A stretch of DNA of 64,000 bases from a virus: the IMG/VR virus record IMGVR_UViG_3300046002_004363, positions 35,578-99,577 of that record; one strand, given 5' to 3'. Shown here in pieces: positions 739-54,400 of the stretch (position 1 is its first letter; every line of letters starts with the position of its first letter). The position numbers were made by a program, and so were the translations under genes. The notes under the pieces were generated by a model. It saw only the letters and a list, made by a program, of their open reading frames with translations. It was not told where the DNA came from and made no database searches.

Positions 739-2097
739 CTAACCTTTAACAAGTACGAAATTATTACGACCCATCGTACATAAGGCTCTTTCTGTCAACA
801 TGTGTAGTTGGTTAGCATCTAAGTCTGAATTACTTACATTTCCAGCTCCACCAACGCTCCACACTTTATAACGTCTGTCTTCAGTAGCAGACTTACGGTA
901 TTTAACGTGTAAGAATGGCAAAGTAGCATTAGCTCCTAAAACTTCATCTCTAACTGTTTTTGTTCCAGAAGGACATAGAACAGAGTTGATTGCAGAGTTA
1001 CCAGAGAACAAACCACGAGCAGTTGGATCATCTAAGTATTTCCATTGAGATTTGTAGATTTCGTAACCAGCAACTTTGAAACCTGAGAAACCTAAGTTTA
1101 AAGCTGTATCTTCGCTGTTATTGAAAGCTCCGTAAGAAGTACCTCCAACACCATAAGAATTTTGAGCAGCTAACAAGTAATCAATAGCTCTGTCTTGTTC
1201 GAAATCATTCATCATCATATATTCAGAAATAGCACCTTGTTTGTTTAAACGAGATAAGATTTCATCTACATCATCCATAGTAGAGATTACACCAGAGAAT
1301 ACGTTACCTTGAGCAACAGCTTCGAAGAAACCTTCAGTACCTGTGTACCCAGCAGTAGCAGCAGCAGAACCACTTTCGAAAGAAACACCCTCTACCATAC
1401 CCATCTCGATATAGTCATCAAATCTTTGACGAGATTGCGCTCTTGATTTTAAGTACCATAAGTACCCATTACCACCTTCACCTTCAACTTCAATCCAACC
1501 AACTTGAGCCATATCAGAACCATTAACTTCATCTAATTCCTTGATGATGATTGGTTTGTTATCAAAGATGTCTGGAGTAGCCTCTAAAGATTCAGCTCTA
1601 CCATTAGTTCCTTTTCTATACTCATTAGAGTAAGTGAATACGTTGATTCCTGAAGCAGCTAAAGCACCAGTATTACCAGCAGTACCGAAACCAGCAGATG
1701 TAGAAGCAGCAACTGTAAATGTATTTGCGTCTTCCGCTGTTACAATACCTTTCATTTCAACTGTACCATCATTTAAGATTACAGTATCATTTAAACGGAA
1801 AGAATGTCCATTCAAAGTAAATACAGCTCCTGAACGAGTTACACCTGTACCAACTGGTCTTAAACGACCTTCTTCAGACCATTTAATTAAGTCAGATTGG
1901 ATAGCCATCTCTTGACCCATTTTCTCTAAGAAACCTTTTAACGATTGGTTTCCGTAACGAGCGAATTCTTTTTCATACAATTCAGGTAAGAATTGATTTG
2001 TGAAGTCGAAATCAGAAGCATCTAAGTAGTTGCTATTTAAGATTTCTTTTGTTGCAGTAGGAGTTAATTTTACTCCTGGACTTGAATTTAATGCCAT
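739..2097 (-). CDS. Major capsid protein
   Basis: 452 aa, downstream of portal and acidic scaffold; QFLPELYEKEFARYG...WSEEGRL N-terminus typical of Bacteroidota podophage capsid proteins. Confidence 0.85.
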   Translation of the reverse strand: MALNSSPGVKLTPTATKEILNSNYLDASDFDFTNQFLPELYEKEFARYGNQSLKGFLEKMGQEMAIQSDLIKWSEEGRLRPVGTGVTRSGAVFTLNGHSFRLNDTVILNDGTVEMKGIVTAEDANTFTVAASTSAGFGTAGNTGALAASGINVFTYSNEYRKGTNGRAESLEATPDIFDNKPIIIKELDEVNGSDMAQVGWIEVEGEGGNGYLWYLKSRAQSRQRFDDYIEMGMVEGVSFESGSAAATAGYTGTEGFFEAVAQGNVFSGVISTMDDVDEILSRLNKQGAISEYMMMNDFEQDRAIDYLLAAQNSYGVGGTSYGAFNNSEDTALNLGFSGFKVAGYEIYKSQWKYLDDPTARGLFSGNSAINSVLCPSGTKTVRDEVLGANATLPFLHVKYRKSATEDRRYKVWSVGGAGNVSNSDLDANQLHMLTERALCTMGRNNFVLVKG

Positions 2098-2132
2098 TTG
2101 TGTGTGTTTTTGTTTTTTTTATTATTTCTTTT

Positions 2133-3152
2133 TTATACTAATTTAAACTTTGTGCCAGTAGATATGCTCTCTGGCGCTCTACGCATTCCCATATCTATGT
2201 TCTTACTATTTCTAACCTCATCCTCTATAGCCTTAGCCTTAGCTGTTTCATATACGTTTGATAAGATTGATTCGTAGTTCATAGCTACATACAATGCTTT
2301 GTGGTATCCTTCAGGGTCTTTGATAAAACCATTCTCATCTAAGAACTTTCCTAAAAAATTCATCACGTTTGATTGTGTCTCTTTCGTAGATTGAATATTT
2401 GAAGGTTTGTGATTAATAACTTCTTCACCAACTTTAAATTCAAAACCTTTGAATTCATTGCTAAATAAATTATCAGTCTCCTTCAAGAATATTTCATTCT
2501 GTTTTTGAGATAATTCCTCTTGCCCTTTAATAGAATCTACAAACTCCTTAGCACTTTTATATTCAGCTGGAATTTCTGTATCACTAGACCCTAATGGTAC
2601 AGCATATTTTTCCTTTTGTTTATTAAAGTATTCTAAGGCATCTGCGTGAGCCTTCTTAAATGCACGAGTCTTTTTTCTTATATCCTTGTCATCATCAAGG
2701 TCTTCATCATAAGCGTATGCATCTAAAAATTCATCTTGAATATCTTCATTGTCGAATTCAGGATTCATTTCTCGCATATACTTCTTAACAATATCTTGTT
2801 CGTCTAATTCAGAAAAGTCTTTTTGGTATTCTAAAAAATCATTATACCCCCTACCTGTTTCCTCTTTAAACTCTAAGTACTTCTTAACATCTTCTGGTAA
2901 TTCCTTGCTTTCGCTTTTAGGAGCTACCTTAGATAATAATTCTTCCTTAGTCTTAAGGTATTCTAATACGTCATCGTCATTATTAAATGTAAGAACTTGT
3001 TTGTCTTCTATAATCTCATCAGGTGTATCATTTGTTGTTGTAACCGAATCTGTAATTTGGTCGTTCACTTCAGACACTCCTTCATTGTCAATGATCACAT
3101 CATTATTTTGAACATCAGAGTACTCAGACCCTTCTAATTTCATTTTAAACAT
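2133..3152 (-). CDS. Capsid scaffolding protein (putative)
   Basis: Very acidic helical 339-aa protein between portal and capsid genes. Confidence 0.65.
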   Translation of the reverse strand: MFKMKLEGSEYSDVQNNDVIIDNEGVSEVNDQITDSVTTTNDTPDEIIEDKQVLTFNNDDDVLEYLKTKEELLSKVAPKSESKELPEDVKKYLEFKEETGRGYNDFLEYQKDFSELDEQDIVKKYMREMNPEFDNEDIQDEFLDAYAYDEDLDDDKDIRKKTRAFKKAHADALEYFNKQKEKYAVPLGSSDTEIPAEYKSAKEFVDSIKGQEELSQKQNEIFLKETDNLFSNEFKGFEFKVGEEVINHKPSNIQSTKETQSNVMNFLGKFLDENGFIKDPEGYHKALYVAMNYESILSNVYETAKAKAIEDEVRNSKNIDMGMRRAPESISTGTKFKLV

Positions 3153-3181
3153 ATAGTATTTGATTTAATTAAATTTCTCTG

Positions 3182-3189
3182 CAAAATTA
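3182..3189 (-). promoter_or_regulatory. Bacteroidota -7 promoter element (TAATTTTG) for scaffold/capsid
   Basis: Matches TAnnTTTG 30 nt upstream of the start codon. Confidence 0.65.
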
Positions 3190-3232
3190 CAAAATAATAG
3201 TTTTTATTTATCGTGGTTAAAATTCTGATAAT

Positions 3233-4135
3233 TTAAACATATATTAGACTTGTTTTATTTGGTCTATTTCCACTTAAGTAATTATTCAGTGTAGATATAT
3301 TTATATTTCTAGCCACAGCAGCTTCTCTTACGCAATAATAATATATTCCACTATCTAAATCTAAGACTAATTTTGATTTGTAATTATTTTCCCCAGATAT
3401 ACTTTTGCTTCTTTTTTCTAAGCACTCTTTTGATAACACCCTTCCTTTTAATGCGTTGGATATTTTCTCCCTTCTTTCTTTTGAAAATACAGTTCCTTTA
3501 TTGCTTTCTGATATTTTCTTTCTAGTTTCAATAGATACTTTTCTACCTACTAATCCTTTTGATATTTTTATTTTACTTTCTTCTGTATGCTTAAATCCTT
3601 TAAGTGAATTAGATATTTTCTCTTTAGATTCGTCTGAATGATTTTTGCCAAGCATATTTTTATTGCCTTTTTTTGATTCAGATATTTTATCTTTAGTTTC
3701 TTCAGTATGATTTTTACCATACATTGGATGTTTTTCCCCAGAAAATTTACCCTTCATTACAATAGACATATTCTCTATTTGCTCTGCGCTTCTTTTTTTA
3801 CCTTTATTAGAAAATCCTATTTTTGACTTTGTTTCTTCTGAATGCTTACCACTAAGAGAATCTGTTTCTGTAAGTTTACAATTCAATCCTTCATTTCCTG
3901 TGGAGTTATAATGATCTTGCCAAAACCTTTCCTTTTCGTTTAATTCGTTTATAAAGCACTCTTCAATAATATCAAAACTATGATTTTTAAATCCATAACT
4001 TAAGATAGAATTATACAATCTAACTTGATTTTTACAGTTGTTATTTCTGTATTTTCTTATTCTGCTGTTTATATTTGTACTTTGACCTATATATATTTTC
4101 CCAGACGGAGAAGTTATCTTGTATATTCCTATCAT
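3233..4135 (-). CDS. GIY-YIG homing endonuclease with multiple NUMOD3 repeats
   Basis: GIYKITSPSGKIYIGQS; several HSEETK-type repeats; own TATATTTG promoter at 4148-4155. Confidence 0.9.
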   Translation of the reverse strand: MIGIYKITSPSGKIYIGQSTNINSRIRKYRNNNCKNQVRLYNSILSYGFKNHSFDIIEECFINELNEKERFWQDHYNSTGNEGLNCKLTETDSLSGKHSEETKSKIGFSNKGKKRSAEQIENMSIVMKGKFSGEKHPMYGKNHTEETKDKISESKKGNKNMLGKNHSDESKEKISNSLKGFKHTEESKIKISKGLVGRKVSIETRKKISESNKGTVFSKERREKISNALKGRVLSKECLEKRSKSISGENNYKSKLVLDLDSGIYYYCVREAAVARNINISTLNNYLSGNRPNKTSLIYV

Positions 4136-4163
4136 ATTTTTTTATTGCAAATATAACTATTTT

Positions 4164-6605
4164 TTATCTAGGGTCAAAAGAACTTAAGTCAAACCCATTA
4201 AGACTATCTTCATTACTCTCGAATGACACCGCAGGTAAATCTTTTTTACGTTGCTCTATCATCTTAGATTGCTGTGTAGCTTGTAATTTTGTTCTCTCGT
4301 CTTTTCTATCCTCCTTCATTTGTTCTTTGGTCTTCATACCATCAACCTCAATCCCCTTAAGTTGCATTTGGTATCCAAACTCTTTCTCCATAAGCATAAG
4401 CTTCATTTCAACTTCAGCCTTCATCTTCTCTATCTCGGCAGCTACTCTTGCTTGCTCTACCATCGCTTTACTTTGACCTTCTAATTGAATTAACTGAGCC
4501 TTGCCTTCTGAAGCAGCTTGAGCAGATTGCATATTACCTTGAGTTTGAGCATTAATTTCTTGCATTTTTTGCTCTTGTCTCTCCTTCATTCTCTTCTCCT
4601 TCTTAATTGAAAGGTATTTAGATGCTAAGGATAAATTCTTAATACCAAGAATAGCATACTTATCTTCTACACCAAGATTTCCTTGTTGAATTTCAAATGT
4701 AATATCCCCTTCTAATTTAGCTCTTTCTTCTTCGTCAGGTGTTAATTCGATGTTTATAGCAAAGTCGTGGATATACATATTCTTAATCTTATCCAACGCA
4801 GTAACATTGTTAGCTGATATTTTATTTATCAAGTCTTGTTTGGTCTCAGAGAATTGTAATACGTCTGCAATACGAATTGTAATGCATTTAGCTAACTCTC
4901 TTGTAACAAACATACTGCCTGCTAATATGTGTCTTGTCGCTACATTTGAAGAATACGCTGCCATCTTTTGAATACCAACTAAACTATTCTTATCAGGATT
5001 ACTTGCATCAATAGCTTGATTAATTCCTGTTACAGATGCAATCATATCCATAGATATTTGAATTGAATCCCATAATGAACTAATCTTATCTTGACCTGAT
5101 GAATGTCTAATCTCTTGAATAGGCACTTTAGCATTGTTAAATTCACCGCCTACATTAGAACTTCTACCGATAACAGAACCTGTTTGGAAGTACATATTCA
5201 TAGCGTCTTCTACGGTGTATTTATTTCCACCACCAAGATTAATACCTACTAGCCCATCAACATCAATGTATTGACCATCAGGAACAACTCTTTGTTTTAT
5301 TTGTTGTAGCTTTAACCAAGACATCTGAATGTCATCTGCAAATGGTATCATTCTGTTCACAGTTGAGTCTATATGTCCTTTATACATTTTAGGAGCAATA
5401 CCAATGTAGTTAGGCTGTACTTTGTTTAAGTTTGATTTCTCCTTAACCATATTCTTACAAACCTCCCACTTTAATAAGATATTTGTTCCTAGTACTAAAA
5501 TACCTTCGAACCACACCTCTTCAATCTTAGTTAATTTCTCAAAGTCGGCATCACCTGTTCCTTTATATACAAAGTCATTATCTTTTGCGATAACTTTTAA
5601 TCCACCCTTTGAATTCTTCTTCTTCTTCCAAACTTTCTCTCTTGAGGTTTTGTAATTAAAGTACAATAAGCCTAATTTACCATCTAATACATCTTGAGAT
5701 TGACCATTAAGGTTCAATTCATAATAGTTATTCCAAGATGAAGATATGCTTTGTAGTCTTTGTTTTTGCTCATCAGTTAGATTTGGAAATTCCTTATAAA
5801 CTTCTGATAAATTTGTATTCTTGTATTCTCCGTAGTAGAAGCAATCTTGAAAGTAAGGGTCTTCTGTGTACGACCAAATTAAGTTTGCAGGGTCAACATA
5901 TTCAATCTTAATTCCGTCTCCAGGAACGAATCTATGTTTTCCAAAACCAACACCAATCTCGATTATATCCTTCTCTATTTTTCTTCTTGTAATTTCGTTG
6001 TAGTTATTCTCTTTAAATACCGTTTCAACAGCTATCTCTACAGCTTGTTCAATTGGTGGCTTAAATTCAAACTCCATCTTAATATCTATCTCATCTTCAC
6101 TTTCTGGTATTTGATCTAAAGGAACAGAAGTTACTTCAATCCCAACATCATTCTTTATTTTTTGAGCTAACTCCTTCCCAATCATATCTGTCTTAAGATT
6201 CTCTCTCTTCTTTGATTTTTCTTCAACAGATGTAGGGTCTACTGCAATAGCATTAATAGAGAATTCTCTCTGAGCCATTCCATTAGCAATTATATCTACA
6301 TACTTAGGGATAACTGGTATAACCTTCCAATCTAAATTCAAATAAGACATATCTCCATTAACAGCGAAGTACTCCTTATATCTTGCAACACTCTGCAATC
6401 CATTAGCATACATTCTTCTCTTGTGAAATTCATCTCTTTGTTGATAATACTTACAGGTAGAGCTTTCTCTTTTAAACCATTCTGCTTGAATACTTTCGCC
6501 AACTTGTAATCCATAATCTTTTCCCTTTTGAACCTCAAATGGTACATTTTGATTTGGAAAACTTCTGTAAGGAATGGAAATACCTTCCGCTTTCTTCTTT
6601 ATCAT
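4164..6605 (-). CDS. Portal protein
   Basis: 813 aa directly downstream of terminase; long Q/E/K-rich C-terminal coiled coil as in podoviral portals. Confidence 0.85.
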   Translation of the reverse strand: MIKKKAEGISIPYRSFPNQNVPFEVQKGKDYGLQVGESIQAEWFKRESSTCKYYQQRDEFHKRRMYANGLQSVARYKEYFAVNGDMSYLNLDWKVIPVIPKYVDIIANGMAQREFSINAIAVDPTSVEEKSKKRENLKTDMIGKELAQKIKNDVGIEVTSVPLDQIPESEDEIDIKMEFEFKPPIEQAVEIAVETVFKENNYNEITRRKIEKDIIEIGVGFGKHRFVPGDGIKIEYVDPANLIWSYTEDPYFQDCFYYGEYKNTNLSEVYKEFPNLTDEQKQRLQSISSSWNNYYELNLNGQSQDVLDGKLGLLYFNYKTSREKVWKKKKNSKGGLKVIAKDNDFVYKGTGDADFEKLTKIEEVWFEGILVLGTNILLKWEVCKNMVKEKSNLNKVQPNYIGIAPKMYKGHIDSTVNRMIPFADDIQMSWLKLQQIKQRVVPDGQYIDVDGLVGINLGGGNKYTVEDAMNMYFQTGSVIGRSSNVGGEFNNAKVPIQEIRHSSGQDKISSLWDSIQISMDMIASVTGINQAIDASNPDKNSLVGIQKMAAYSSNVATRHILAGSMFVTRELAKCITIRIADVLQFSETKQDLINKISANNVTALDKIKNMYIHDFAINIELTPDEEERAKLEGDITFEIQQGNLGVEDKYAILGIKNLSLASKYLSIKKEKRMKERQEQKMQEINAQTQGNMQSAQAASEGKAQLIQLEGQSKAMVEQARVAAEIEKMKAEVEMKLMLMEKEFGYQMQLKGIEVDGMKTKEQMKEDRKDERTKLQATQQSKMIEQRKKDLPAVSFESNEDSLNGFDLSSFDPR

Positions 6606-14274: not shown

Positions 14275-15837
14275 ATGGTTATAAAAGAAGTTAAATTTAA
14301 TCAAGAAGCAAAAGAGCCTTTAATTAAAGGTATCTCAACAGTTTGTGATGCAGTTGCTACAACTATGGGATATAGAGGTAGAACAGTATTAATTGAGAGT
14401 CCAGGAGGGCTTCCAATCGTAACAAAGGATGGTGTATCGGTAGCGGAAAGTATTTTCCTTGAAGATGCAACAGAAAGTTTAGGTTGTGAGTTTGTAAAGC
14501 AAGCTTGTAGAAAAACAGTTAATGAAGCAGGTGATGGTACAACTGGCACAGCCGTACTTACAAAGGCTATTATAGACAATAGTCAGAAGTATTTAAAGAA
14601 GGGTGAGTCGGCAATTGATTTAAAGAATGGTATTGACTTTGCTGTAAAGGAAGTTGTTGAGTACATCAAGAGTACATCTAAAGAAGTTGACGATTCGTAC
14701 TTGTTTGATGTGGCAAGAATATCAGCAAACAATGATTCTGAATTAGGGGAGATAATTGCAAAAGCCTTTATATCTGCTGGAAAGAATGGTGTTGTATCTT
14801 ACGAGCAATCAGAAAGTTCAGAAACCTATTTAGACTTTATTGATGGTATGCCAATCGCAAGAGGGTATGAATTTGAGGGGTTTGTAAATAAACCAGAAAA
14901 TAGATCAATCGAATTCAATAATAACCCCCTTATCTTACTATCAAACAGAAGATTTCAGAACATTACAGAATTACTACCTGTTATAGAGTTTTGTCACCAC
15001 GCAAAGAAAGAGCTACTTATCATCTCTGAAATGGAGTTTGAGGTTATGAAGGTTTTGTATGCTAATAAAAAGAATGGTCTTAAGGTAGCTACTATTATAC
15101 CGCCAAGTATAGGAGAGAAGCGTAGAGATTATTTAACAGATATTTCTTTAGCAACAGGTGGTTTAATTATTGATTTAGACACCTCTACAAATATTGAAGG
15201 GTATGATATGAATGAACTACTTGGTAAATGTAGTCGATTGACTGTAACTAAAGATGACACTGTATTATTCTTTAATGAAAAACCTAATGCAGATAGGGTT
15301 CAATCAAAGATTGAAGAGTTAAATAAAGTAATCAAGAACTCAAACAATAATTTAGAAAAGGAATACCTGAGAGACCGTATATCAAAATTAGCTTGTGGTG
15401 TTTCTGTAATTAAGGTTGGAGGAACAACTGAGGTAGAGATTAAGGAGAAGATTGATAGGGTTGACGATGCAATTAATGCAGTTAAGAGTGCAATAGCTGA
15501 AGGTGTGGTTGTAGGAGGTGGTTTAGCGCTATATAACGCCTCTTTAAAGCTTGTTCCTGTATCGAAAGGATATAAGTGTCTTCTTGAGTCAATTCAAGCT
15601 CCTATTCGCACTATTTTAAGTAATGCAGGTATTAAGTTAGATTCAATTGAAATGAACTTACTAACATATCAAGATAACTATGGATACGATGTTAAGGATT
15701 ACGAAATTGTAGATATGTTTGAGAAAGGAATTATAGATCCTTCAAAGGTAATTAGATTAGCCTTAGAGAATGCTGCAAGTGTAGCTACAACAGTTTTATT
15801 AACCAATACGACAATAACACATAAAAGAAGTAACTAA
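14275..15837 (+). CDS. groEL: Phage chaperonin GroEL
   Basis: TKDGVSVA, AGDGTT, GVSVIKVGG.TEVE.KE, GVVVGGG and GIIDP motifs. Confidence 0.95.
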   Translation: MVIKEVKFNQEAKEPLIKGISTVCDAVATTMGYRGRTVLIESPGGLPIVTKDGVSVAESIFLEDATESLGCEFVKQACRKTVNEAGDGTTGTAVLTKAIIDNSQKYLKKGESAIDLKNGIDFAVKEVVEYIKSTSKEVDDSYLFDVARISANNDSELGEIIAKAFISAGKNGVVSYEQSESSETYLDFIDGMPIARGYEFEGFVNKPENRSIEFNNNPLILLSNRRFQNITELLPVIEFCHHAKKELLIISEMEFEVMKVLYANKKNGLKVATIIPPSIGEKRRDYLTDISLATGGLIIDLDTSTNIEGYDMNELLGKCSRLTVTKDDTVLFFNEKPNADRVQSKIEELNKVIKNSNNNLEKEYLRDRISKLACGVSVIKVGGTTEVEIKEKIDRVDDAINAVKSAIAEGVVVGGGLALYNASLKLVPVSKGYKCLLESIQAPIRTILSNAGIKLDSIEMNLLTYQDNYGYDVKDYEIVDMFEKGIIDPSKVIRLALENAASVATTVLLTNTTITHKRSN

Positions 15838-21760: not shown

Positions 21761-22346
21761 ATATGCAAATATACGAAAAATATGTATATAAATTACGCTA
21801 TCAATATACAATTATTAACTTATATTAAAAATGTATATACCTATTCAAACCATCCTTTTATAATATACGGACATTAATGGTGTATACACTTTTATCAATA
21901 ATTTGTTATATATTCTATGTTAGATAAGTCTGTTGTAGTTAGTATGGTCTGTTGTTGTGATTATAACCCCACCCTACGATCACCACCCTCCCCACCAAAA
22001 CCATCCACCAAAGCCTACGGGGGTAACCTTTCAAAATGTTTCTCCAAAAGTTTTTACCTTTTTAGCCTGGATTGATGTCGTGGTACATTACAGCCTACTT
22101 ATTTAACGGCACAATATTGTAGTTAATCCATTCAACGTTTTAGGTAATCAACTTTTAAAACCAAAATACAAAGGTTTTATTTTTTTGTGGTGTGAAGTGG
22201 CTTTTGTCGGTGCAACTAATCCCAAAACCTAAAGCAATTTTAACCTAAAATAACTACATTCTAAAAGTTAAGTTCTTAAATTATAATAATATCATAAAAT
22301 TGTATAAAATGTAACTACTTGAAAATCAAAGGCTTTAATAATAATC

Positions 22347-22417
22347 AAGTTAAAAAGTGTTAAAGTTTTGTTAAAGGTATTGTTATCTAAAATTAAATAC
22401 CTATATTTGTAGTGTAA
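22347..22417 (+). promoter_or_regulatory. Early promoter P1
   Basis: GTTAAAAAGTGTTAAAGTTTT upstream block plus TATATTTG (22402-22409). Confidence 0.7.
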
Positions 22418-22583
22418 TAATGAAACAAAGTTCTTTTATATACATTATGTAATACACGATAAGGCTAAACCACAGGTATACTATAAAATAAGTAAATGTG
22501 AAATAGGCAAACATCCGAGTATTGTAAGTTAGTTGGTCACACGTTACGCAAAGCAGTATGGTACACAAGGCGATAAGATAGCA

Positions 22584-22646
22584 AATGTTAAAAAAGTGTT
22601 AAAGTTTTTGTATATTAAATAACTTGTTATATATTTGCAGTGTTAA
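22584..22646 (+). promoter_or_regulatory. Early promoter P2 (near-duplicate of P1)
   Basis: GTTAAAAAAGTGTTAAAGTTTT plus TATATTTG (22630-22637). Confidence 0.7.
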
Positions 22647-22815
22647 GTAGAGACAAACTACTTCAAAATAAATCAGCTGATACCACAGGCTTACGATGTG
22701 GAGGTAGTCATAAAAGACTATAAAATAGGGTGTGGTCACTCAGGAATAAGCGGTAAAAAGTAATCCGTGAAGTCCGAGACTACGATACTGCCAACTACAT
22801 AGGTATAAGGTCGTT

Positions 22816-22870
22816 AAGCGTATAAGGATGTGTTATCCTTACTGAAGAGAGGCAGAACCTCGAAACGCTT
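22816..22870 (+). ncRNA. Hammerhead ribozyme, type III
   Basis: AAGC-GUA; stem I UAAGGAU/AUCCUUA; core CUGAAGA; stem II GAGG/CCUC; GAAA; stem III CGCUU; predicted cut after A22822. Confidence 0.9.
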
Positions 22871-22886
22871 TTTAAAATTATACACT

Positions 22887-22997
22887 ATGAAGAATAAACT
22901 TAAGGTTATAGCGCTACTAATTGTGGCGCTATTTCTATTAGCAGTAGCAGAAAAACATTGTGAAACCAAAAATAAATACTATGAAGGGCAGAAGTAA
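22887..22997 (+). CDS. 36-aa single-TM peptide (not in ORF track)
   Basis: MKNKLKVIALLIVALFLLAVAEKHCETKNKYYEGQK; first ORF after the ribozyme. Confidence 0.5.
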   Translation: MKNKLKVIALLIVALFLLAVAEKHCETKNKYYEGQK

Positions 22998-23130
22998 TTC
23001 AAGTAGCAGAAGGTTAGCCTTAACCATCAGCACAAGCAGTACAATGAATGATTTTATTAACAAAAAATTAGGAGTAACTAAAGAAAACAAACGACCAATT
23101 TTAATCAAACCAACTAAAAAATAATATATT

Positions 23131-23319
23131 ATGGACAAATCTTATTCAATTTTTTGCATCGCAAGTCAGTTATTAAAAGATAACGAAAGAGAGTTAGATA
23201 TAGTTTGGCAAAATGCAACCGAACTATACAACGAATTTTTAAATAGTAGTTTCGATAATGTTAACGAATCGGAGTTGGACTGCATAAATGATTTTTTAAA
23301 TTATAAAAATCTAATATAA
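23131..23319 (+). CDS. Early hypothetical protein
   Basis: A-rich leader, coupled to next ORF. Confidence 0.55.
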   Translation: MDKSYSIFCIASQLLKDNERELDIVWQNATELYNEFLNSSFDNVNESELDCINDFLNYKNLI

Positions 23320-23660
23320 TGAAAACACTACAAATTAATTTGGGATTAAATAATAATCCAATGGATCGTGATCAGGTAGCTAACTACTTTTATGCACTAT
23401 CTGAGTATAGACTAATGGCTTATATCATCAAGGATAAGACCTTTAATGGTGAAGTAGAGCCTACTTTTGTAGCCTTATTAGAGCATAAGTACACACGTGA
23501 CAGCAAAATACTATCTGATGCTGAAAATTGGTGTAGCCTATTCACTCAGGAGTCAATTGCAGTAGTGACTGATAAAATGGAGGTGCTTGCATTCAATACG
23601 AAGTACGAAGGAGATACCTACAAATTTGATTCTAGTCTATTTGAATACATTAAAATATAA
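23319..23660 (+). CDS. Early hypothetical protein
   Basis: 113-aa ORF. Confidence 0.6.
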   Translation: MKTLQINLGLNNNPMDRDQVANYFYALSEYRLMAYIIKDKTFNGEVEPTFVALLEHKYTRDSKILSDAENWCSLFTQESIAVVTDKMEVLAFNTKYEGDTYKFDSSLFEYIKI

Positions 23661-23729
23661 CCTTATGAGAGCAATTATAAAATTTTTAGAAGAGTTAGCT
23701 AAGAATTGTCCGAGCGAGACAAAATGGTA

Positions 23730-23787
23730 GGCAAACTGATGAGGTTTTAATAACCGAAACTTGGATCTTCGGATCTGAGTCTTTGTC
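23730..23787 (+). ncRNA. Hammerhead ribozyme, type I
   Basis: Stem I GGCAAA/UUUGUC; core CUGAUGA; stem II GGUU/AACC; GAAA; stem III CUUGGAUC-UUCG-GAUCUGAG; GUC triplet, predicted cut after C23781. Confidence 0.92.
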
Positions 23788-23809: not shown

Positions 23810-24061
23810 ATGAGAACAAAACAAGTTTTAGAATACATAGAAAACACACTAAATCAAACACCTAGACACAATTGTACAGCACTAGCTAAGGCTATAACCC
23901 AAGCTAGTAAAAAATTCAAGCAGGACCAATTCGATATGATGATGTTACTACTGGAAAATAAACCAATAGGAGGTCACACTCATAGCTATGGTTTCCACAC
24001 GTCATACGGAAGAGATCTAATAGACACAATGTCAAACTATTACTATAAATTTAATAACTAA
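23810..24061 (+). CDS. Early hypothetical protein (start revised to ATG 23810)
   Basis: The TTG start in the track lies inside the ribozyme; A-rich leader precedes ATG 23810. Confidence 0.55.
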   Translation: MRTKQVLEYIENTLNQTPRHNCTALAKAITQASKKFKQDQFDMMMLLLENKPIGGHTHSYGFHTSYGRDLIDTMSNYYYKFNN

Positions 24062-35192: not shown

Positions 35193-36134
35193 ATGAATCA
35201 TAGTTTTAACGTAGATATAGCAAAAAAATATGGTGTAGAATTGGCTATAATTTTAGAAAATATGCAGTGGTGGATTGCTAAAAATAAAGCTAATAAAAAG
35301 CATTTTCATCAAGGAAGTTACTGGACATATAATTCTGTAAAAGCATTTTCTGAACTATTTCCTTATTGGTCTGTACATCAAATAGGCAGGTTTTTAAGAA
35401 GACTAGAAGACGAAGGTTTGATAGTGTCTAAAAACTTTAATAAGGCTGGATATGACAAGACAAAGTGGTATACAGTCAATGATAGCTTGATTTTGCAAAA
35501 TTGCAACATCGAATGTGCAGAAATGCACAATCCATTGTGTGAAAATGCACAACCTATACCAGATATAAACACAGATATAAATAATTCTCTTGTAGGGTCT
35601 TCTCAGACACCTACGAAAAAAGATTCTAAGAAAGATTTATTTAAAACCAAATTGTCAGAAATTGATGTTACTACACTTGATAAGCAAGAACAAGTATATT
35701 TTAAAATAGCTATTGGTTTTAGAGATTTGTTTATAAAGAACAAAAAGGCTTTAGGTGTTAATGATTTTAGAGACCAAGAAAACGCTACTTACAAAAATTA
35801 TGTTGACCCAATAAGATTATCTTTTACGCAAGATAAAAAAACAGAGGAAGATTTTAGAAAGGTGTATGCTTTTTTAATGAATGATGAATTCTGGATGAAG
35901 AATATAATGTCTACATCTAAGTTAAGAGAAAAAATGTCTGATTTACTGATAAGATCATCTTCTGTTCCGACTAAGAAACAAGTACTACCATCAGACTTTT
36001 GGGTAAGGGAATTAAGTGATGAGCAAAAGAAATTACTAAGCGATAAAGACTTAGCTACTTGGGAAAGACAGAAGACAGCAAGGCTTATGGAGGGTGGTAG
36101 AATGTTACCTATAAAAATAGAATATGAAAAATAA
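35193..36134 (+). CDS. Replication initiator (winged-helix, lambda O/DnaD-like; start revised)
   Basis: WTYNS...LFPYWS...L..EGLI...YDKTKWY; internal direct repeats; FWMKNIMS.SKLR; directly upstream of primase-helicase. Confidence 0.75.
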   Translation: MNHSFNVDIAKKYGVELAIILENMQWWIAKNKANKKHFHQGSYWTYNSVKAFSELFPYWSVHQIGRFLRRLEDEGLIVSKNFNKAGYDKTKWYTVNDSLILQNCNIECAEMHNPLCENAQPIPDINTDINNSLVGSSQTPTKKDSKKDLFKTKLSEIDVTTLDKQEQVYFKIAIGFRDLFIKNKKALGVNDFRDQENATYKNYVDPIRLSFTQDKKTEEDFRKVYAFLMNDEFWMKNIMSTSKLREKMSDLLIRSSSVPTKKQVLPSDFWVRELSDEQKKLLSDKDLATWERQKTARLMEGGRMLPIKIEYEK

Positions 36135-45486: not shown

Positions 45487-48400
45487 TTAATTAGCTCTAT
45501 TACCATTTACCTTTAAATCTTTTCCTTCCTTATAACTTGGAAATCTTGACTTCAACTGAGTTTCTTTAACTCCTGGTATTACCCTTGATTTACGGAATTG
45601 ATTATCAGTACTATCCTTCTCTACATCCTCTTTACTTCTAAGAATATCAATCTTTGATTCTTCTATATCCTTGATTATATTCTCTCTGTACTTACCATTT
45701 GTATTTTGGTATATAACATCATTCCTCATCTTAGAATCTATCTTAGAAAAATCATTTACCCCTAAGATACCTAGTGGTGTAAATCTAACTAAGTCAGGTA
45801 TAGCATAATCAGTAGCCATATATCTATCCATCTTCGTTAATGCAGGGAATAATATATTAAACACATCTTGAGTTAACTGTTGCTTGCTTGCTTTTTCAGT
45901 TAATCCAGCCTTCACTGGTGTTTGAAATACATTATCCTTAAACGCATCATAACCTCTTTCACCTCTTCTAGCCTGAATCAACTGCTTATTAGCTAACTCA
46001 GCAGCATAATTGTAGGCTGCCTTTGTAAAGTTATTAGATCTTGATAACATCATTCCCATAAACAATTTAAGACCCTCAGTTGTAGTTATATCACCAATAG
46101 ATTTATTACTTCTGTAATCAGACAATATACTTGCTGTCTTCGTAATTATAAGTCTGTCTATCTGTTTGTTAGACTCTCTTATAGCTCTATTACTTAAGAA
46201 CTTAGTGTCAGACATATACTTCTCTAACTTTAAAGTGTAAGAATCGATTTGGTCTTGCGTAAATAACTTATAACCTTGTTGTGAATTAAGAAGTCCTAAT
46301 ACGCCTATAATCTCATCATCTGATTTACCAAATCCTTTATCCATATCAGAGAAGAATACCTCAACAAGTGATTTATCGTATTCGTATTTACCACTATTTA
46401 TTTCTCCTATTTTGTTCTTAACTTGATTGTCAAATAAATCTCTGTTAACATAACCATAAACAATGTCGTAAGCCGCAGCAAAATCTTTATTTTGCATAAG
46501 TTTATCTCTCATCTTGTTATACTTAACCAAATCCTCTCTAGTCAATTCAATTATATTACCATCAGCATCTTTTTGTATTGGGTAGTCTAATAATGAATTA
46601 TTTACCTCCTTAATGAAATCATCATCGCCTGACAACTTATCGAAAGATACTTTTAATTTCTCTTCATCATCGTCATCTCCTTTGAATAATCCCCATATAG
46701 CTCCAGTTATATAGTTGATTGCTAATGAATAAGAAGCTAATCTTATAGCTCCACCAAGAAATCTTCTTGCATTTCTACCTTCTTGATTCTCTATGTATGT
46801 ATTAACAGCTGTATTCATATCGTTTCTAGCATTCATATCGAAACTAGCAAATAAGTATGCTGCTTTATTCACAAGTGCATTAACTGCTCCAGGAACTGAG
46901 TTCTTAACTTGTTTTGATGCAATCTCCATAATACCAACCTTCTTCTCCATAGGGTTTGTACTACCATATAGATCGGCATTTTCCTGGTTAGCTTTATTAG
47001 ATGCTTTACTTATAGCGTCTTTATACTTCTTAAGGTATTCAACATCTCCTCTTGCTATCTTCTCTACATTAACATCTTCTCCTGTTTGTTTTAAGAATTC
47101 TTCGTAGAAAACACCGTTCCAAGATATTGCATAAGGCTTAACGTCTCCAAATCCTAGTAATGTATCCACAGCTCCAGATGCAGTATCTCTTATAGGGCCT
47201 GTAATATTGGTTTTAATCTTAAGACCTATATTTGATGATGGTAATCCCTTTGATAAGACCTCCTTATTAATACCTTTATTTATAAATTCAGTTCTCTCTG
47301 TATTTATCTTCTTAGATGAAATCATCTTGTTAACATCAGAAGCCTCAGCATTCTCATAGAAACTTCTTATCAACTCTGTTTCACTCTCACCGTCTTCCTT
47401 TATATTCACAAGAGCATTTGACACCTTATTACTGTATGAAATATACTTAGGATTTATAGTCATTAATTGCACCATATTCCCAGCAAAATCGACACCTCTA
47501 CTTATTATACTACCCAATGCTAACGTATAGAATGCTCTATCAGTTCCGTTTAATATCTTATCTGTAAGTGTAGGCTCTGTATGTATAGCTCCGTTTATAA
47601 GTAAGTCAAATTGAGAGTTCAAAGCTTTCTGAATACCCTTTAAATAAGGAAGTACATCGTTGTCTTTTGAATTCTCTGCAATAGCCTCATTTATAGCTTG
47701 AGTTATAGCTGCATACTCAGATCTTAATTGGTGTTGAAATAATACATTCCTAACACTTGAGAAGGCAGATGTGAAAGGGTTTAAATCAATAGGGTGTGCA
47801 GTACCAGTCTTATCTTCTAAGTTACCAGCCTTTATTGACACACTATCAATACCAAACTTGCTTTTTAGTCTAGCTAAATCATTTTCAGCTTGTTTAACCA
47901 CACTATTAAATACAGGATAGTACTCTACAATCATTGGGGCTGCATTAGAGTTTTGAAAGAAATTAGCTTCGTATGCATTGATTTGATTTTCCTCTAATAC
48001 CATTCTAATAGCATTTGCGGCATTCGCTTCCTCTGGTGTTAAATCATCTATTTGATTATTATTAGCTCTAACTTTATCAATAAATCCTTGAACAAGACCC
48101 TTCATATAGTTATCTTCACTTATCTTAGAGTTAGGGTCGCTTACAGTAGCTTCAAAGTATTCCATAGCTGATATAGAAGAAGTTGTTCCTACATTATTCT
48201 TAGCCATTGTATCAATCAAGTGATAAACAATCTTCATATAAGACTCTTGTGGATTCTTTGAGTTCTTATCTAAATCCCTCTTAGCTCTAAGTAATACTGA
48301 TTCTACCTTTTCTTCAGTCGATGCTATTCTTGACATAGCCTTACCAAATGAAGACATAAATGCGTTAAATAAAGGTGTATCTCCATATACCTTTACAGCT

Positions 48401-51400
48401 GCATCTATAGCTGATAAATTAAAGAGCTTAATTCTTCTGTCAATTATTTTTTGAGTTATATTCTTCTTCCTGATATCGTTCCATAAAGCTACAGGATTAA
48501 GAGGCAACCCAATAATCTCTCTTATTTTAAGTGGTATTTTAGCCGCTTTAATTTTATATACCCCAAACTTACCTGCCTTTCTTAACGTATCTACTAATGC
48601 ATTTTTATAATTTGTCTTTAGTTTATATATATATAATTCCTCTGCGTAGTCATTTACAATGTCATCATAAACCATAGAGTTTAATGAGTTCAATACATTT
48701 GTAAGCATATTATCAGGCATAGAATCCACATCTGACTCACTAAGACCAATCAATGCGTCTAATATTCTCCACTCCAAACTACCTTTAGTAGCATTTGATG
48801 ATTCAAATACACTCTTAATTGACGGTAACAATTCTTTTATAGAGGCTTTCTTCTTAGCTATCTCTTCTTCTTTCTTAGCATCCCTTTCTAATTTCTTAGC
48901 TTCCTTATCAGCTAATGTTTCAGGAGTCTCTCTTTCTCTAAATTCAGATTTATTATTCTCTATGAAATCAGATTCACCTTTAGTTAAAGTACCACCAGCA
49001 TCTATAATTTGTTGTATTCTATTTACTTCAGCCACATAATCACTATATGGTTTTACAATTTTATCAAATATTTTCTCAATAGTAGGTAAATCTGTCTCCT
49101 CTAAAGTCAATCCTCTACCAGACAATCTACTAATATAGTCTTTGTATTGTTCGAAGTCAGCATCATCTAAAACCTTCTTAAGTCTCTTAGGCTCTAATTT
49201 AGTAAAGTTTACAATCTTAGATGACATAACTTTATCTCTGTCACCTCTTTTATCCAACTTACCAACCTTTCCAGACATTACATTATCAAATGCATTTTTA
49301 CTATCATCCTTAGCTGTATTTACATCTCTATTTGTGTATAGATTATCTAATACAGTATTTATGTCTAATAGTTTTTCCTCAAAGTTTTGGTCTGTAATAC
49401 TTTGTATTTTAGAAGCAATAGATGTAATAGCTCTGTTTCCTATGTCTCCAGCCTTTAAATCTGTAATAGAAGCTTTTATAAATGCATTTGCTTCTGCTTT
49501 CAAGCTTTTTATTAAGGCAGCCTTATCTTTTTCAGCTACTGTCTTAAGTTTTTGAAAAGCCACACCTATATCATAAGCTTTATTTATTCTTTTTTGCTCG
49601 GTAGCTTCAGGTTTAATACCAACTACTTTATTTATTTGGTCAGATAGTTTTTTAGGCTTCTGCATTCTAACTGAAGGTTTGTCAATTTTAATGATGCTTC
49701 TTCTGTTTCTCTCATTGTTTACAGTTGTTCCTTTAGCTATACCATCTAAACTTTCATATCTAAGTTTATCTCCATCTACATTTGTAATTAAAGACTCTCT
49801 TCCGTCAATAATAGCGTAATCACCATCTTTAAATGTATCTAGTGGTCTCTCTTTAAAATCAATAGCCTTATCAGAAGGAGTAAGCTCCTTAGTTGTTTGC
49901 GCTCTAAGTTCAGAACCTCTCCATTGAGTTACAGCTATATCAAAACCATTCTCATTAGCTATCTGAGTTATAAAAGCACCTCTATGATTGTTGGTAAATG
50001 CTTGACCAGGTCTAACTTCATTGAATCTTTTCTTAGCTTCTTTCTCAAAACCAAGTGGATCAGAATCTATGTCGTATACCTTATCTTTAGAGATTAAAAT
50101 ATTATGCTCTACATTTCCAACTCCAGTCTCTTTTTGACCTTCCATTGTATAGAACATAGCTAAACCTCCAACAGCACTCAAGGCAGAAGCCTCTTCTCTT
50201 GAAGTGATAGCATTATTTCCTTGACCTGTCTTGATTACATCTCTCTTTTGGTCTGAGTAATGCTTGAATACAAAGTTGCCATCTCCATCTTCAGTTAGCT
50301 TTTCAGTTACTTTTACAGGTAATTCTTTTTGTTGTCTTTTTGAAGGAATAGTAGATATTTCTTTTACACCAGATCCATATGGAGCTATAGCTTGTGATGC
50401 TTGACTATTTTTTCCTAAGTATTTTTTAGCCATTTCTTTAGGCATAACCTCAAGTGCGTTTATTTTTGAGTCTGGAACACCTATAACTTCTCCTTCAATT
50501 GTATTTTCATATGTAGAATGATTCGAACCAGCTCTAACACCAGTAGGTTTCAATACTAACATTATATCATTCTGTTCAAAACCATTATCCTTATAAAATC
50601 CATCTCTAAAATCATCTAAATTGAAATATCCATCTAATGATTTTATGTATTTGTGAAATTCAGTATTAGGTTTTTTACCACTTTCATTTATAGCAATCAA
50701 GAATGGTTTCCTACTTGTAGAATTTCTTAAATCATCCCAATTTTCAATATTGTTTAATATATCTGTTATATCCTTAGTCGGTTTTGTTTTTAAGACTTTA
50801 TTTTTAAAGTTATCAAAATCACCAAAATTAGATATCATTTTATCAAATACTTTTTTATTAAATAACTTACTCACAGTAGGAGAACCGCTAATGATAAATA
50901 TGTAATCTGATTTATTAATATTGTTATTGATAGAGTTAATATTCATACTACTAGCCCAGATATCTCCTTCTTTTTGGTGTGCAAAACTAGGTCCTCCATC
51001 AAAATCTTTATTTATTCCTAATTGGTCGGCAACCCAAAACCAAACTTTTTGTTTTTTAGCAACGATATCTTCCAATAAGGAATAGATGTCAACTTTTTTA
51101 TCTGGAGTAACTAATGAATTATCATAAGAATCCTTAAAGTCGATTTTAGATTCACGCTTTTTAGGTATTCTAATTTCAGTTGGATTTCCAATAGGATTAG
51201 TTCCATTATCCAATGTAGACACATCTTCTACTCTTATTTCTTTACCAGTAGCAACCCTTTTAGCAATGGTATTCAACACATCAAAAACCTCGTTAGTTTC
51301 GAATAACTCGACACCAAAAGATTTAGCTATATTGTTTAACCAGTTCTTTATAATTTCCTTTACTCTTGTAGAGAATGATTCATAATTTTCAGCCAACATA

Positions 51401-54400
51401 CCTACCAATTCAGCCAACTTCTCTTCGTCTTGTATATTCTCATCGTACATTGATGCGAAGTCCTCTAATTTAGCCTTTAAAGTAGGATTACCTTCTATCT
51501 TAGAAGTAATAACCTCAATCATTTTCTTTGTTACAACCTGAGCGTTAGCGTCTGTCTTAACCTTATCAAGTAGTATTGCGTGGAATATCTCGTGGGCTAC
51601 AGTTCTTTTGTTTGCTTTAGGCAGGTTTATATGTATCTCTCCATTAATGTAAAGACCAGAAGATTCTTGGTTCTTTGACTCGCCACTAACACTTCTAAAT
51701 GAAGTATCTGTATCGTGAATTATTACCTTTACATTAGGTAGTATTTTTGATATTGCCTTAACACCATTTAAAACAGCTTTTGCTATCTTCTTATCAGCTA
51801 TATTGGCTACCTGTTTTTTAGCTTGATTTATATCTTTAGCTACTTCGATTCCCTTTGACTTTGGTTTTAATCTTTGTTGTATCTCTTTAAATTCGGCTGG
51901 AGTTAGTTTTTTAGGGTTCATACCGTCAGAGCCAGTCTTAACATTCTCAAATGTATCTAAATCAAATAAAGACTCTTGACCCAACTCTTTTCCTATGGCA
52001 ATAGCCTCTTCTCTAACAGAAGGGTCTGCAACTATATTTATATCTATAGATGCCTGATTAGAATTAGGGAATTTATAGATACCAACCTTTACATTGTCAG
52101 CGCCTACCGATTCTGCATTCTCATCTACAAACGACTGAATAGCTTCTGGTGTTAATTCAGACGCATTCATATTCTTTGAAGCCAAAGGAATAACTAATCC
52201 TCCGTCTTCATATTTAGATCCGTCAAGATTCATTGTAGCCCCATCTTCAGATTCAATAGGTAGGGCTTTAACTCTATCCACCTCAATTGAAGTGTATGGA
52301 TCAGATATTTTTGTATTTACTTTTTCTTCACCTTGTTTGGTAACGACTTCTTGTTTGGTGTCTCCTTGCTCCATTTCTTGCAATCCCATTTCGGATTGTC
52401 CTGGCTGTAGCACGCCTTCATTTGTGATTTGCTCTTGAACGGCATCTTCTTGTGTTTTAATGTTATCTAATAATGGTTTAATTTGCGCATCATACTTGGC
52501 ATAAATTTCTTTAGCCTTTGCGTTATCTGATTCAGACACCTTTTTAGCGTCTACTTTCCCATCTGTAATGAAGTTCTCAGGGGTTTCTACATTCTCTGTT
52601 AGTTCATTAAGTTCTTGAACTCTAAGTTTATCTACTTCTTCTTGCAGCCCGACATTGCTTTTTTGCTGTGCTGCGCTAACGGTTTGTTCTTTGGTTGCGG
52701 CTGTAGGCTTTTCTTCACTGGCGATTTGCCCATCAGTTTGCTTTGTTTTTGCATCTTCTTGTATTTTTTGGTTATATAATTCTTTTGCTTTGTTGTTAAT
52801 TACTTCTGCATTAGGCTCTTGTATCTTATCTTTTTCAATGCCTTTGTCTACTTGCTCTTGTATTATAGCTTCTGCCGCTTCTACTTTAAGTTTAGTTTGC
52901 TCTTCTTCAGGAAGTATATCAAACGATGATTTTCTCCCAGAAACAATGTCCTCCCTAAGAGATTCATTCTTAATAAATTCGTCTTTCAATCCAGATAATA
53001 ATACAGCTTTTTGGTCTTTACTTATAGTTTTATCTTCATTTATTTGATTTGCTTTGTTTCTTAAATCAGAGCTTGCAATTTCAATGTCTATAACTTTATC
53101 TATAAGTTTGTCATCTAACTTGGCTGTATTTTGAATAATTTTAGTTAAACCATCTTCATTAGCCTTTACTATTTTATCTATTTTACTCTTAGCCTCTAAT
53201 TTTACAACTTCACTTGCTTCTTTATTATTTAATATTTTAGATAATTCCTCTATCTCTTTATTGTTTTTATCTAAGTTATATGTATAATCTTTTGGAGAAA
53301 ATGCATTTGCTACTTTAGCTATTGCTGTTGGAAATAAATTCAAACCAATAACCATAACGCCTGTATCCTTTACTAGTGACTTTACTTCTTGTTTAGCATT
53401 TTTAAATACATCCTTAGACTCTAAATCTAAAACAACAATATCAGTTATTTTTTGAGCGCCATAGGTTGTTAATTCTTCTTTTAATTCTCCAGTATAGTTT
53501 TTAACAAATTCTTTACCAGCATTAAATGTTTTTGTAGAAAGTGATTCTTTAAATAATTTTCTTGAAGGTTCATTTTTTAATGCTTTGGTTATAATGTTTT
53601 TACCTCCTCCAATCATTTTAAGGGTATTTGATTCAAGCATTTCTGAAGCACCATATAAGCCAGAAGCTAATACCATTTGCAACTTTGAATAATCAGTACT
53701 CCCTTCTGCGTTTGACGTAACCAATTCTGAGTATTTATTACCAGCAGAAGAAGCTCCAATACCATACATCATCGATGTTCCTCCAGTAAGATACCCTAGC
53801 GCTATATTAGGCGTTTGTGATATTAATACATCAGATCCATAATCAAGTATATCGTTTAGGTTTTTCGAATCTTTTACTTGTTTTTGTAGTTTTTCAGCAA
53901 CAAATCTATCCTTGTCATTTTTTAATTCAGCTATCTGCATAGCTGTTATATCTTGCATAGGACCTCCTTTTGCTACATTAGCTAATTGAAGTACTCCTAA
54001 TCCAAAATCAGATACAGCATTTAATAGTTTTCCTGCCTTATCTTCAAAACCATAAGACCTTTTAAATAAATCATATTCCTCCTCAGCAGTAGTTAATTCA
54101 CTAAGGTTTTTTTCGTAATTTTTGTATAGCTTAGTTCTTGTATTTATTTTTAAAGGAAGTTCTGCACTCAATTTATTATATCTATCTAAATCATTTGGAG
54201 ATAAACCATCGTTGTTTTTTGCTAATTTCTCTAATTCAACCAGCTCGCTATTATCTTCCTTTATATCTAAATCTAACGCCTTAAGTATATCAAATTGTTT
54301 ATTAACTTCAGGTGCTTTTATTCCTATTTGGTTAGACGAATTAATTTTCATTCTATCCTTAGTATCATTATCTAGATTATCTAAATAATCATTAGCTAAA

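Follow-up and report, generated by a model that had tools for sequence, protein, structure and literature searches.

Conserved type III and type I hammerhead ribozymes at the head of the plus-strand arm in Elemovirus-like Flavobacterium phages

We analysed the final 64,000 nucleotides of the IMG/VR virus record IMGVR_UViG_3300046002_004363 (positions 35,578–99,577; hereafter the window). Direct reading, covariance-model alignment and comparison with relatives identify positions 22816–22870 as a genuine, evolutionarily conserved type III hammerhead for which self-cleavage is predicted (ribozyme 1). A second hammerhead, of type I (ribozyme 2), lies 0.9 kb downstream and changes the picture of the RNAs produced from this locus. 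Judged from the sequence comparisons set out below, both ribozymes are real, conserved features of the phage genus Elemovirus. They are unannotated and constitute a fresh example of a known, functionally unexplained phage arrangement. The features of the locus are collected in Table 1.

Table 1 Features of the ribozyme locus (window coordinates).
Feature	Coordinates	Strand	Basis
Promoter-like P2: upstream box shared with P1, TTTG, -7 box TATATTTG	22588–22637	+	Sequence reading
Conserved non-coding leader, ~180 nt, ORF-free, several hairpins	22643–22822	+	Conservation; start inferred from -7 box
Hammerhead ribozyme 1, type III	22816–22870	+	Direct reading, fold, descriptor scan, RF00008 alignment, covariation
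First ORF after ribozyme 1, 36 aa, hydrophobic core, no family match	22887–22997	+	
ORFs between ribozymes: 23131–23319 (62 aa), 23319–23660 (113 aa), 23665–23730 (21 aa)	23131–23730	+	
Hammerhead ribozyme 2, type I, GUC triplet, UUCG-capped stem III	23730–23787	+	Direct reading, descriptor scan, covariation
First ORF after ribozyme 2, 83 aa, ATG 22 nt past ribozyme	23810–24061	+	

A sequence-only reading had described a complete type III hammerhead with the conserved core, three perfectly paired stems and a GUA cleavage triplet, about 180 nt downstream of a promoter P2 and 16 nt upstream of the first early ORF. Direct reading bore out the core, stems and triplet; the full-length covariance-model alignment and the compensatory substitutions in relatives upheld a complete hammerhead on the coding strand just before the first ORF. 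The core consists of CUGAAGA and GAAA, with all 13 conserved core positions in place. Stem III pairs AAGCG with CGCUU over 5(+1) bp, stem I pairs UAAGGAU with AUCCUUA over 7 bp plus a possible G.U and is closed by the 5-nt loop GUGUU, and stem II pairs GAGG with CCUC over 4 bp and is closed by the loop CAGAA; none of the three contains a mismatch. U16.1 and A17 follow the 5′ strand of stem III and give the GUA triplet, position 17 is not a G, and cleavage is predicted between A22822 and U22823. As Perreault et al. 2011 ask of a hammerhead, three helices meet at the core, and the pairs adjoining the core are standard throughout (U1.1-A2.1, G10.1-C11.1 and A15.1-U16.1). Loops close stems I and II and both ends of the RNA lie in stem III, which is the type III topology, and the unconstrained minimum-free-energy fold of 22816–22870 was exactly this three-way junction. 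The distances held as well: a 16-nt spacer separates ribozyme 1 from the first ATG (22887–22889), and the -7 box of P2 at 22630–22637 puts the cut about 180 nt past the likely transcription start.

The motif was then set against random sequence. The descriptor used for scanning called for the core and a UH site and set minimum stem lengths of 4/3/3 bp, G.U pairs included; it returned one type III match in the 64-kb window and exactly two hammerheads of any type, over all three topologies, in the whole 99,577-base record. Applied to both strands of 2,788 random 64-kb sequences from a first-order Markov model, the same scan gave 36 loose matches (~0.013 per window), and motifs with stems of at least 7/4/5 bp numbered zero in these 2,788 sequences. 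When the Rfam model RF00008 (Hammerhead_3) was compared with a 61-nt stretch, 22815–22871 aligned with the whole model (positions 1–54 of 54), scoring 32.2 bits with an E of 5.4e-6. The alignment is full-length, but its score did not reach the curated gathering score of 48.5 bits. Larger Rfam searches were blank for hammerheads, both on the 64 kb at the gathering threshold and on stretches of 401 nt and 111 nt at E ≤ 10, because the speed filters dropped ribozyme 1 and not because it is absent; a search of the phage's own record with RF00008 gave only a weak 13-bit match overlapping ribozyme 2. The cmscan speed filters can hide short ribozymes, and ribozyme 1 was seen only in the 61-nt search. 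This is a practical pitfall, in that a textbook hammerhead escapes the standard Rfam pipeline through its filters and a high gathering score.

We next turned to the relatives of the window. It shares ~90% identity with vB_FspP_elemoA-F, Flavobacterium phages of the genus Elemovirus (~60 kb; 68 sequenced Elemovirus records) that infect Flavobacterium sp. BAL314 from the Baltic Sea. The motif also occurs on three IMG/VR contigs, and further distinct sequences came from the contigs L009 and L010, so that the covariation set had four distinct members (window, elemoA, L009 and L010), one per lineage. Across the four, the core and both loops of ribozyme 1 are invariant, 100% of the cells are paired, and the observed covariation score was unmatched by any shuffle. 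Stem II is swapped from GAGG/CCUC to GUCA/UGAC with three pairs altered on both sides, the outermost pair of stem III turns from A-U to U-A in L009, and one G-C is replaced by G.U; compensatory substitutions were therefore found in stem II (three doubly changed pairs) and in stem III (one). Sliding the 3′ partner by 1–3 columns lowered the pairing to 29–46% and left no double changes. Three compensatory changes fall within 13 nt, and protein-coding constraint on either strand is therefore ruled out as the source of the conservation. Stem I is invariant among the four lineage sequences and draws its support solely from the wider subfamily described below. Ribozyme annotation was absent for either element in the six Elemovirus GenBank records examined, and none of the papers in the collection searched connected Flavobacterium phages with hammerheads.

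Metagenome contigs were scanned with the pattern CTGAAGAG-N3-CAGAA-N3-CGAAAC, in which 19 nt are copied from the core and loop II of ribozyme 1. This yielded a complete type III hammerhead on 10 unrelated metagenomic contigs with G+C contents of 0.28–0.63; the recurrence of loop II CAGAA among them is imposed by the search pattern. MAFFT alignments of the unrelated hammerheads were structurally inconsistent, and a model-guided alignment was used instead. In this alignment 95.9% of the cells are paired and double changes occur at 12 of 17 pairs, including 6 of the 7 in stem I. A covariance model built from the 10 alone scored ribozyme 1 at 57.6 bits (E 1.4e-14), a large share of which arises by construction because 19 nt of the query pattern were taken from ribozyme 1; the next best match to this model in the 64 kb, with filters off, reached 13 bits. 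The placement of the 10 was not set by construction, and every one of them lies 11–31 nt before an ATG. The catalytic nucleotides are invariant in all lineages and in all 10 subfamily members. In four members the distance to a preceding same-strand ORF is only 3–38 nt, and the rule that a type III hammerhead always heads an operon was rejected on that count. One member belongs to a larger array: on an unrelated 65-kb AT-rich contig (L039, Ga0114974_10000122; 1535–4448, minus strand), a type III hammerhead preceded by ~500 nt of non-coding sequence is followed by three of type I, which share stem I GGUUAA/UUAACC and each lie exactly at a gene junction. On a 1.7-kb AT-rich metagenome contig (L024, 1243–1491), a TAnnTTTG box stands ~180 nt before the subfamily hammerhead and an ATG follows 11 nt past it, the same spacing as in the window with an unrelated leader sequence.

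Ribozyme 2 begins at the stop codon of the 21-codon ORF and reads, in order, GGCAAA, CUGAUGA, GGUU with loop UUAAU and AACC, GAAA, an 8-bp stem III, UC and UUUGUC, with a predicted cut after C23781. Two of its stem II pairs are changed on both sides in elemoA and L010, where the inner part of stem III is also replaced by another helix and the cap changes from UUCG to GUGA. The comparison as a whole gave 5 doubly changed pairs and 96.5% of cells paired, with one A.A mismatch. Ribozyme 2 resembles RAGATH-1 and type I hammerheads (RF03152, RF00163) in its CUGAUGA and GAAA segments, open stem I and long capped stem III; its match to the RAGATH-1-hammerhead model RF03152 is partial, covering only the 3′ two-thirds at 24 bits, far under the cut-off of 56.3. 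Ribozymes 1 and 2 share the plus strand, and the segment between their predicted cuts (22823–23781) measures 959 nt in the window and 1,836 nt in elemoA.

The genomic setting was examined on both sides of ribozyme 1, which lies at the plus-strand edge of a ~1.1-kb gap (21812–22886) without ORFs of at least 60 aa. Upstream of the gap is the minus-strand structural arm with portal, large terminase and tail fibre genes; the plus-strand arm that leaves the gap has ~40 small ORFs first, after which come genes for a replication initiator, a primase/helicase and an exonuclease. As read from the sequence, a place for ribozyme 1 in the earliest transcript is plausible. The putative promoter P2 has a Bacteroidota-type -7 box of the TAnnTTTG kind and is identical in Elemovirus. 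P1 (22355–22409, -7 box at 22402) is its near-duplicate; the two units (22355–22412 and 22588–22650) have in common the TATATTTG -7 box and an upstream box whose last letters are GTGTTAAAGTTTT. The RNA after P1 shares the short blocks ACCACAGG and ACTATAAAATA with the P2 leader, and the 3′ portion of this P1 RNA has been retained even in L009, a diverged contig. Further into the AT-rich divergent intergenic region is a C-rich tract (21960–22020) with repeated CCACC/CCCTCCCC-like words.

The leader between P2 and the cut matched no Rfam family, and similarity to the leaders of L024, L026 and L039 was not found. Its consensus fold over four sequences contains 3 doubly changed pairs with a covariation term of 0. 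Large deletions have removed parts of it in L009, in which some blocks are retained and hairpins such as CCACA/UGUGG persist. Upstream of the cut, leader and promoter are ~97% identical to Elemovirus, whereas the downstream ORF is replaced, and the ORF directly behind ribozyme 1 differs in all four lineages; ribozyme 1 is thus tied to the promoter and leader and to no gene in particular. Compared with window positions 22874–22891, elemoA has three extra small ORFs (~715 nt; L002:2645–3360) inserted directly behind ribozyme 1. Each end of this insertion has a copy of the short A/T-rich leader that precedes the ATG, which suggests cassette exchange at this point. The neighbouring ORFs gave no informative family against Pfam and PHROG.

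Some properties of the record as a whole were also noted. It repeats itself: window 29433–63997 (genome 65010–99574) corresponds to genome 3672–34882, the last ~35 kb being 87–96% identical to the first ~35 kb in the same order at an offset of ~64 kb. The 99.6-kb record looks like an assembly joining ~1.6 copies of two related ~60–64 kb genomes and not a 100-kb phage. A GroEL-like chaperonin (14275–15837, plus strand; phrog_5725, E 1.6e-125) lies inside the mostly minus-strand structural arm, and a single ORF of 3,260 codons occupies 45487–55269 on the minus strand.

Hammerhead cleavage leaves a 2′,3′-cyclic phosphate on the upstream product and a 5′-OH on the downstream product. From the sequence evidence we consider it probable that ribozyme 1 is a functional type III hammerhead, transcribed from P2 in the early/replication arm of an Elemovirus-like phage and cutting co-transcriptionally together with ribozyme 2; transcription, cleavage, end chemistry and physiological benefit are what we infer here. 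P2 would drive the plus-strand transcript carrying ribozyme 1, which would fold during transcription and cut between A22822 and U22823. The ~180-nt leader would then be freed with the end ...GCGUA and a 2′,3′-cyclic phosphate, keeping only 7 nt of the ribozyme because ribozyme 1 is of type III. The downstream message would start with a 5′-OH on the stem I hairpin, followed by stem II, an open A/U-rich 16-nt spacer and the ATG. Ribozyme 2 would cut after C23781 and, being of type I, would leave its body on the upstream piece as the 3′ end. Three RNAs would in this way arise from the early transcript: the leader, a 959-nt four-ORF message bearing ribozyme remnants at both ends, and the remainder of the operon, headed by a short open leader. 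From the established chemistry of hammerheads, the release of the upstream RNA and the 5′-OH end are expected at 22822/22823.

When the post-cleavage 3′ product of each of the four lineages was folded, the hairpins of stems I and II were kept and the region around the start codon stayed open. With more flanking sequence included, the hammerhead is missing from the minimum-free-energy folds of elemoA and L009, so that cutting may require the RNA to fold while it is being transcribed. A feature confined to the window is a modelled helix of ~12 further pairs beyond stem III (ddG ~-13 kcal/mol by folding), which could hold both cleavage products together. The selected effect would be that variable gene cassettes are uncoupled from the structured leader and from one another and that the stability and translation of the pieces are set; insulation and end-definition are, as a conjecture, the most likely benefit. 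In RiboJ, an engineered insulator, a hammerhead placed after promoter-proximal RNA removes the upstream context and leaves a 5′ hairpin. RiboJ is synthetic and ribozyme 1 natural, and the likeness extends to the proposed working principle only.

Other readings of the locus were weighed against this one. Ribozyme 1 might mainly make a small RNA, the ~180-nt leader, with its 5′ end set by P2 and its 3′ end by the ribozyme, trimming of the mRNA being a by-product. The far better conservation of leader and promoter than of the downstream sequence (~97% against replaced ORFs) speaks for this, as do the type III topology, which leaves the leader nearly free of ribozyme sequence, the conserved hairpins kept in the diverged L009, and the TAnnTTTG box at the same distance before a hammerhead of the same subfamily in AT-rich L024. 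Yet several subfamily members lie 3–38 nt after an upstream ORF and have no leader, so the class needs no small RNA, and the leader itself has a structure nearly without covariation, no Rfam family, and large parts missing in L009. We consider this reading possible but on the unlikely side. An extended version holds that P2, leader and ribozyme 1 form a ribozyme-terminated gene for a trans-acting small RNA with a cyclic-phosphate 3′ end, and that a type III hammerhead at the head with type I hammerheads at the junctions is a general design leaving ribozyme-capped messages. The order of type III first and type I after is seen in the window and in the unrelated L039 contig; the extended version as a whole seems doubtful to us.

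The conserved fold might also not be a constitutive cutter, and act instead as a slow or conditional element or as a 5′-UTR structure controlling translation of the first ORF. Competing longer-context folds in elemoA and L009, the ability of the start codon to pair with sequence upstream of ribozyme 1 in the window, and the slowness of some phage hammerheads (PMC3088659) would fit such a role. The invariance of the catalytic nucleotides in all lineages and all 10 subfamily members argues against it, since a hairpin pair would not need them, and the helix sequestering the ATG is missing from elemoA, L009 and L010. We rate a non-constitutive role as quite improbable. A conserved riboswitch-like ATG-sequestering helix was rejected as a candidate in its own right, as it appears in the window fold only.

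Still less probable, and in our view very unlikely, is excision of the 959-nt segment with joining of its ends by a host RtcB-type ligase into a circular early mRNA. Both ribozymes being on one strand, the excised RNA would carry ends with the chemistry of an RtcB substrate, and both ribozyme bodies would stay on the excised piece. Circular or spliced products were raised as a possibility by Perreault et al. for clustered prophage hammerheads, but were sought there and none was found (PMC3088659). The strands set free in the window, CGCUU and GGCAAA, showed no end-joining complementarity, the two half-ribozymes are unable to form a hybrid ligation-competent hammerhead, and the excised length varies widely between the window and elemoA. 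Finally, chance resemblance to a hammerhead in AT-rich intergenic DNA, for which one could cite the silence of the standard Rfam scan, is excluded by the length of the stems (0 of 2,788 random windows), the compensatory changes in relatives and the full-length alignments to RF00008 and to the model from 10 environmental hammerheads.

Compared with known families, ribozyme 1 shares with RF00008 type III (clan CL00010) the 13 core positions, the three helices, the loops on stems I and II, the open stem III and the GUA triplet; it differs in having A at N7, where U is commoner, in its short loop II CAGAA and in a score under the gathering threshold. As a pair, the two ribozymes resemble the clustered prophage hammerheads that flank single genes or short gene blocks and cleave in vitro (Perreault et al. 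2011, PMC3088659): here too, two ribozymes on the same strand bracket a short block of variable small phage genes. In contrast to those clusters, the locus lies in a virulent-type, cultured Bacteroidota podovirus lineage (Elemovirus) with no integrase nearby, and what precedes ribozyme 1 is a putative promoter with a long, conserved non-coding leader and not a gene. A parallel in position is HHphage of the haloviruses HF1/HF2, 13 nt ahead of their first early ORF; in HF2 the 5′ end has been mapped at the cut site (PMC3088659). In both cases a hammerhead sits a short distance (13 nt there, 16 nt here) ahead of the ATG that opens the first ORF on a polycistronic transcript, early there and presumably early here. 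HHphage, however, is a core variant that depends on high salt and comes from an archaeal virus, whereas the core of ribozyme 1 is canonical and its cut site predicted. Perreault et al. 2011 proposed the processing of long transcripts as the role of clustered prophage hammerheads (PMC3088659). The insulation reading favoured here would, by analogy, be theirs, and is consistent with the mapped 5′ end of HF2.

The roles of genomic hammerheads in bacteria and phages are still called largely elusive (PMC6765202). What the present locus adds is a partner ribozyme, clear covariation, a recurrent position before a start codon and a cultivable phage-host pair. The two ribozymes sit in a cultured, lytic Flavobacterium phage genus with a known host, and natural variants with swapped stems and with different gene cargo behind an identical ribozyme are at hand. 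The locus thereby lends itself in practice to testing whether the cut governs how stable the early mRNA is or how well it is translated, or whether it frees a functional leader RNA.
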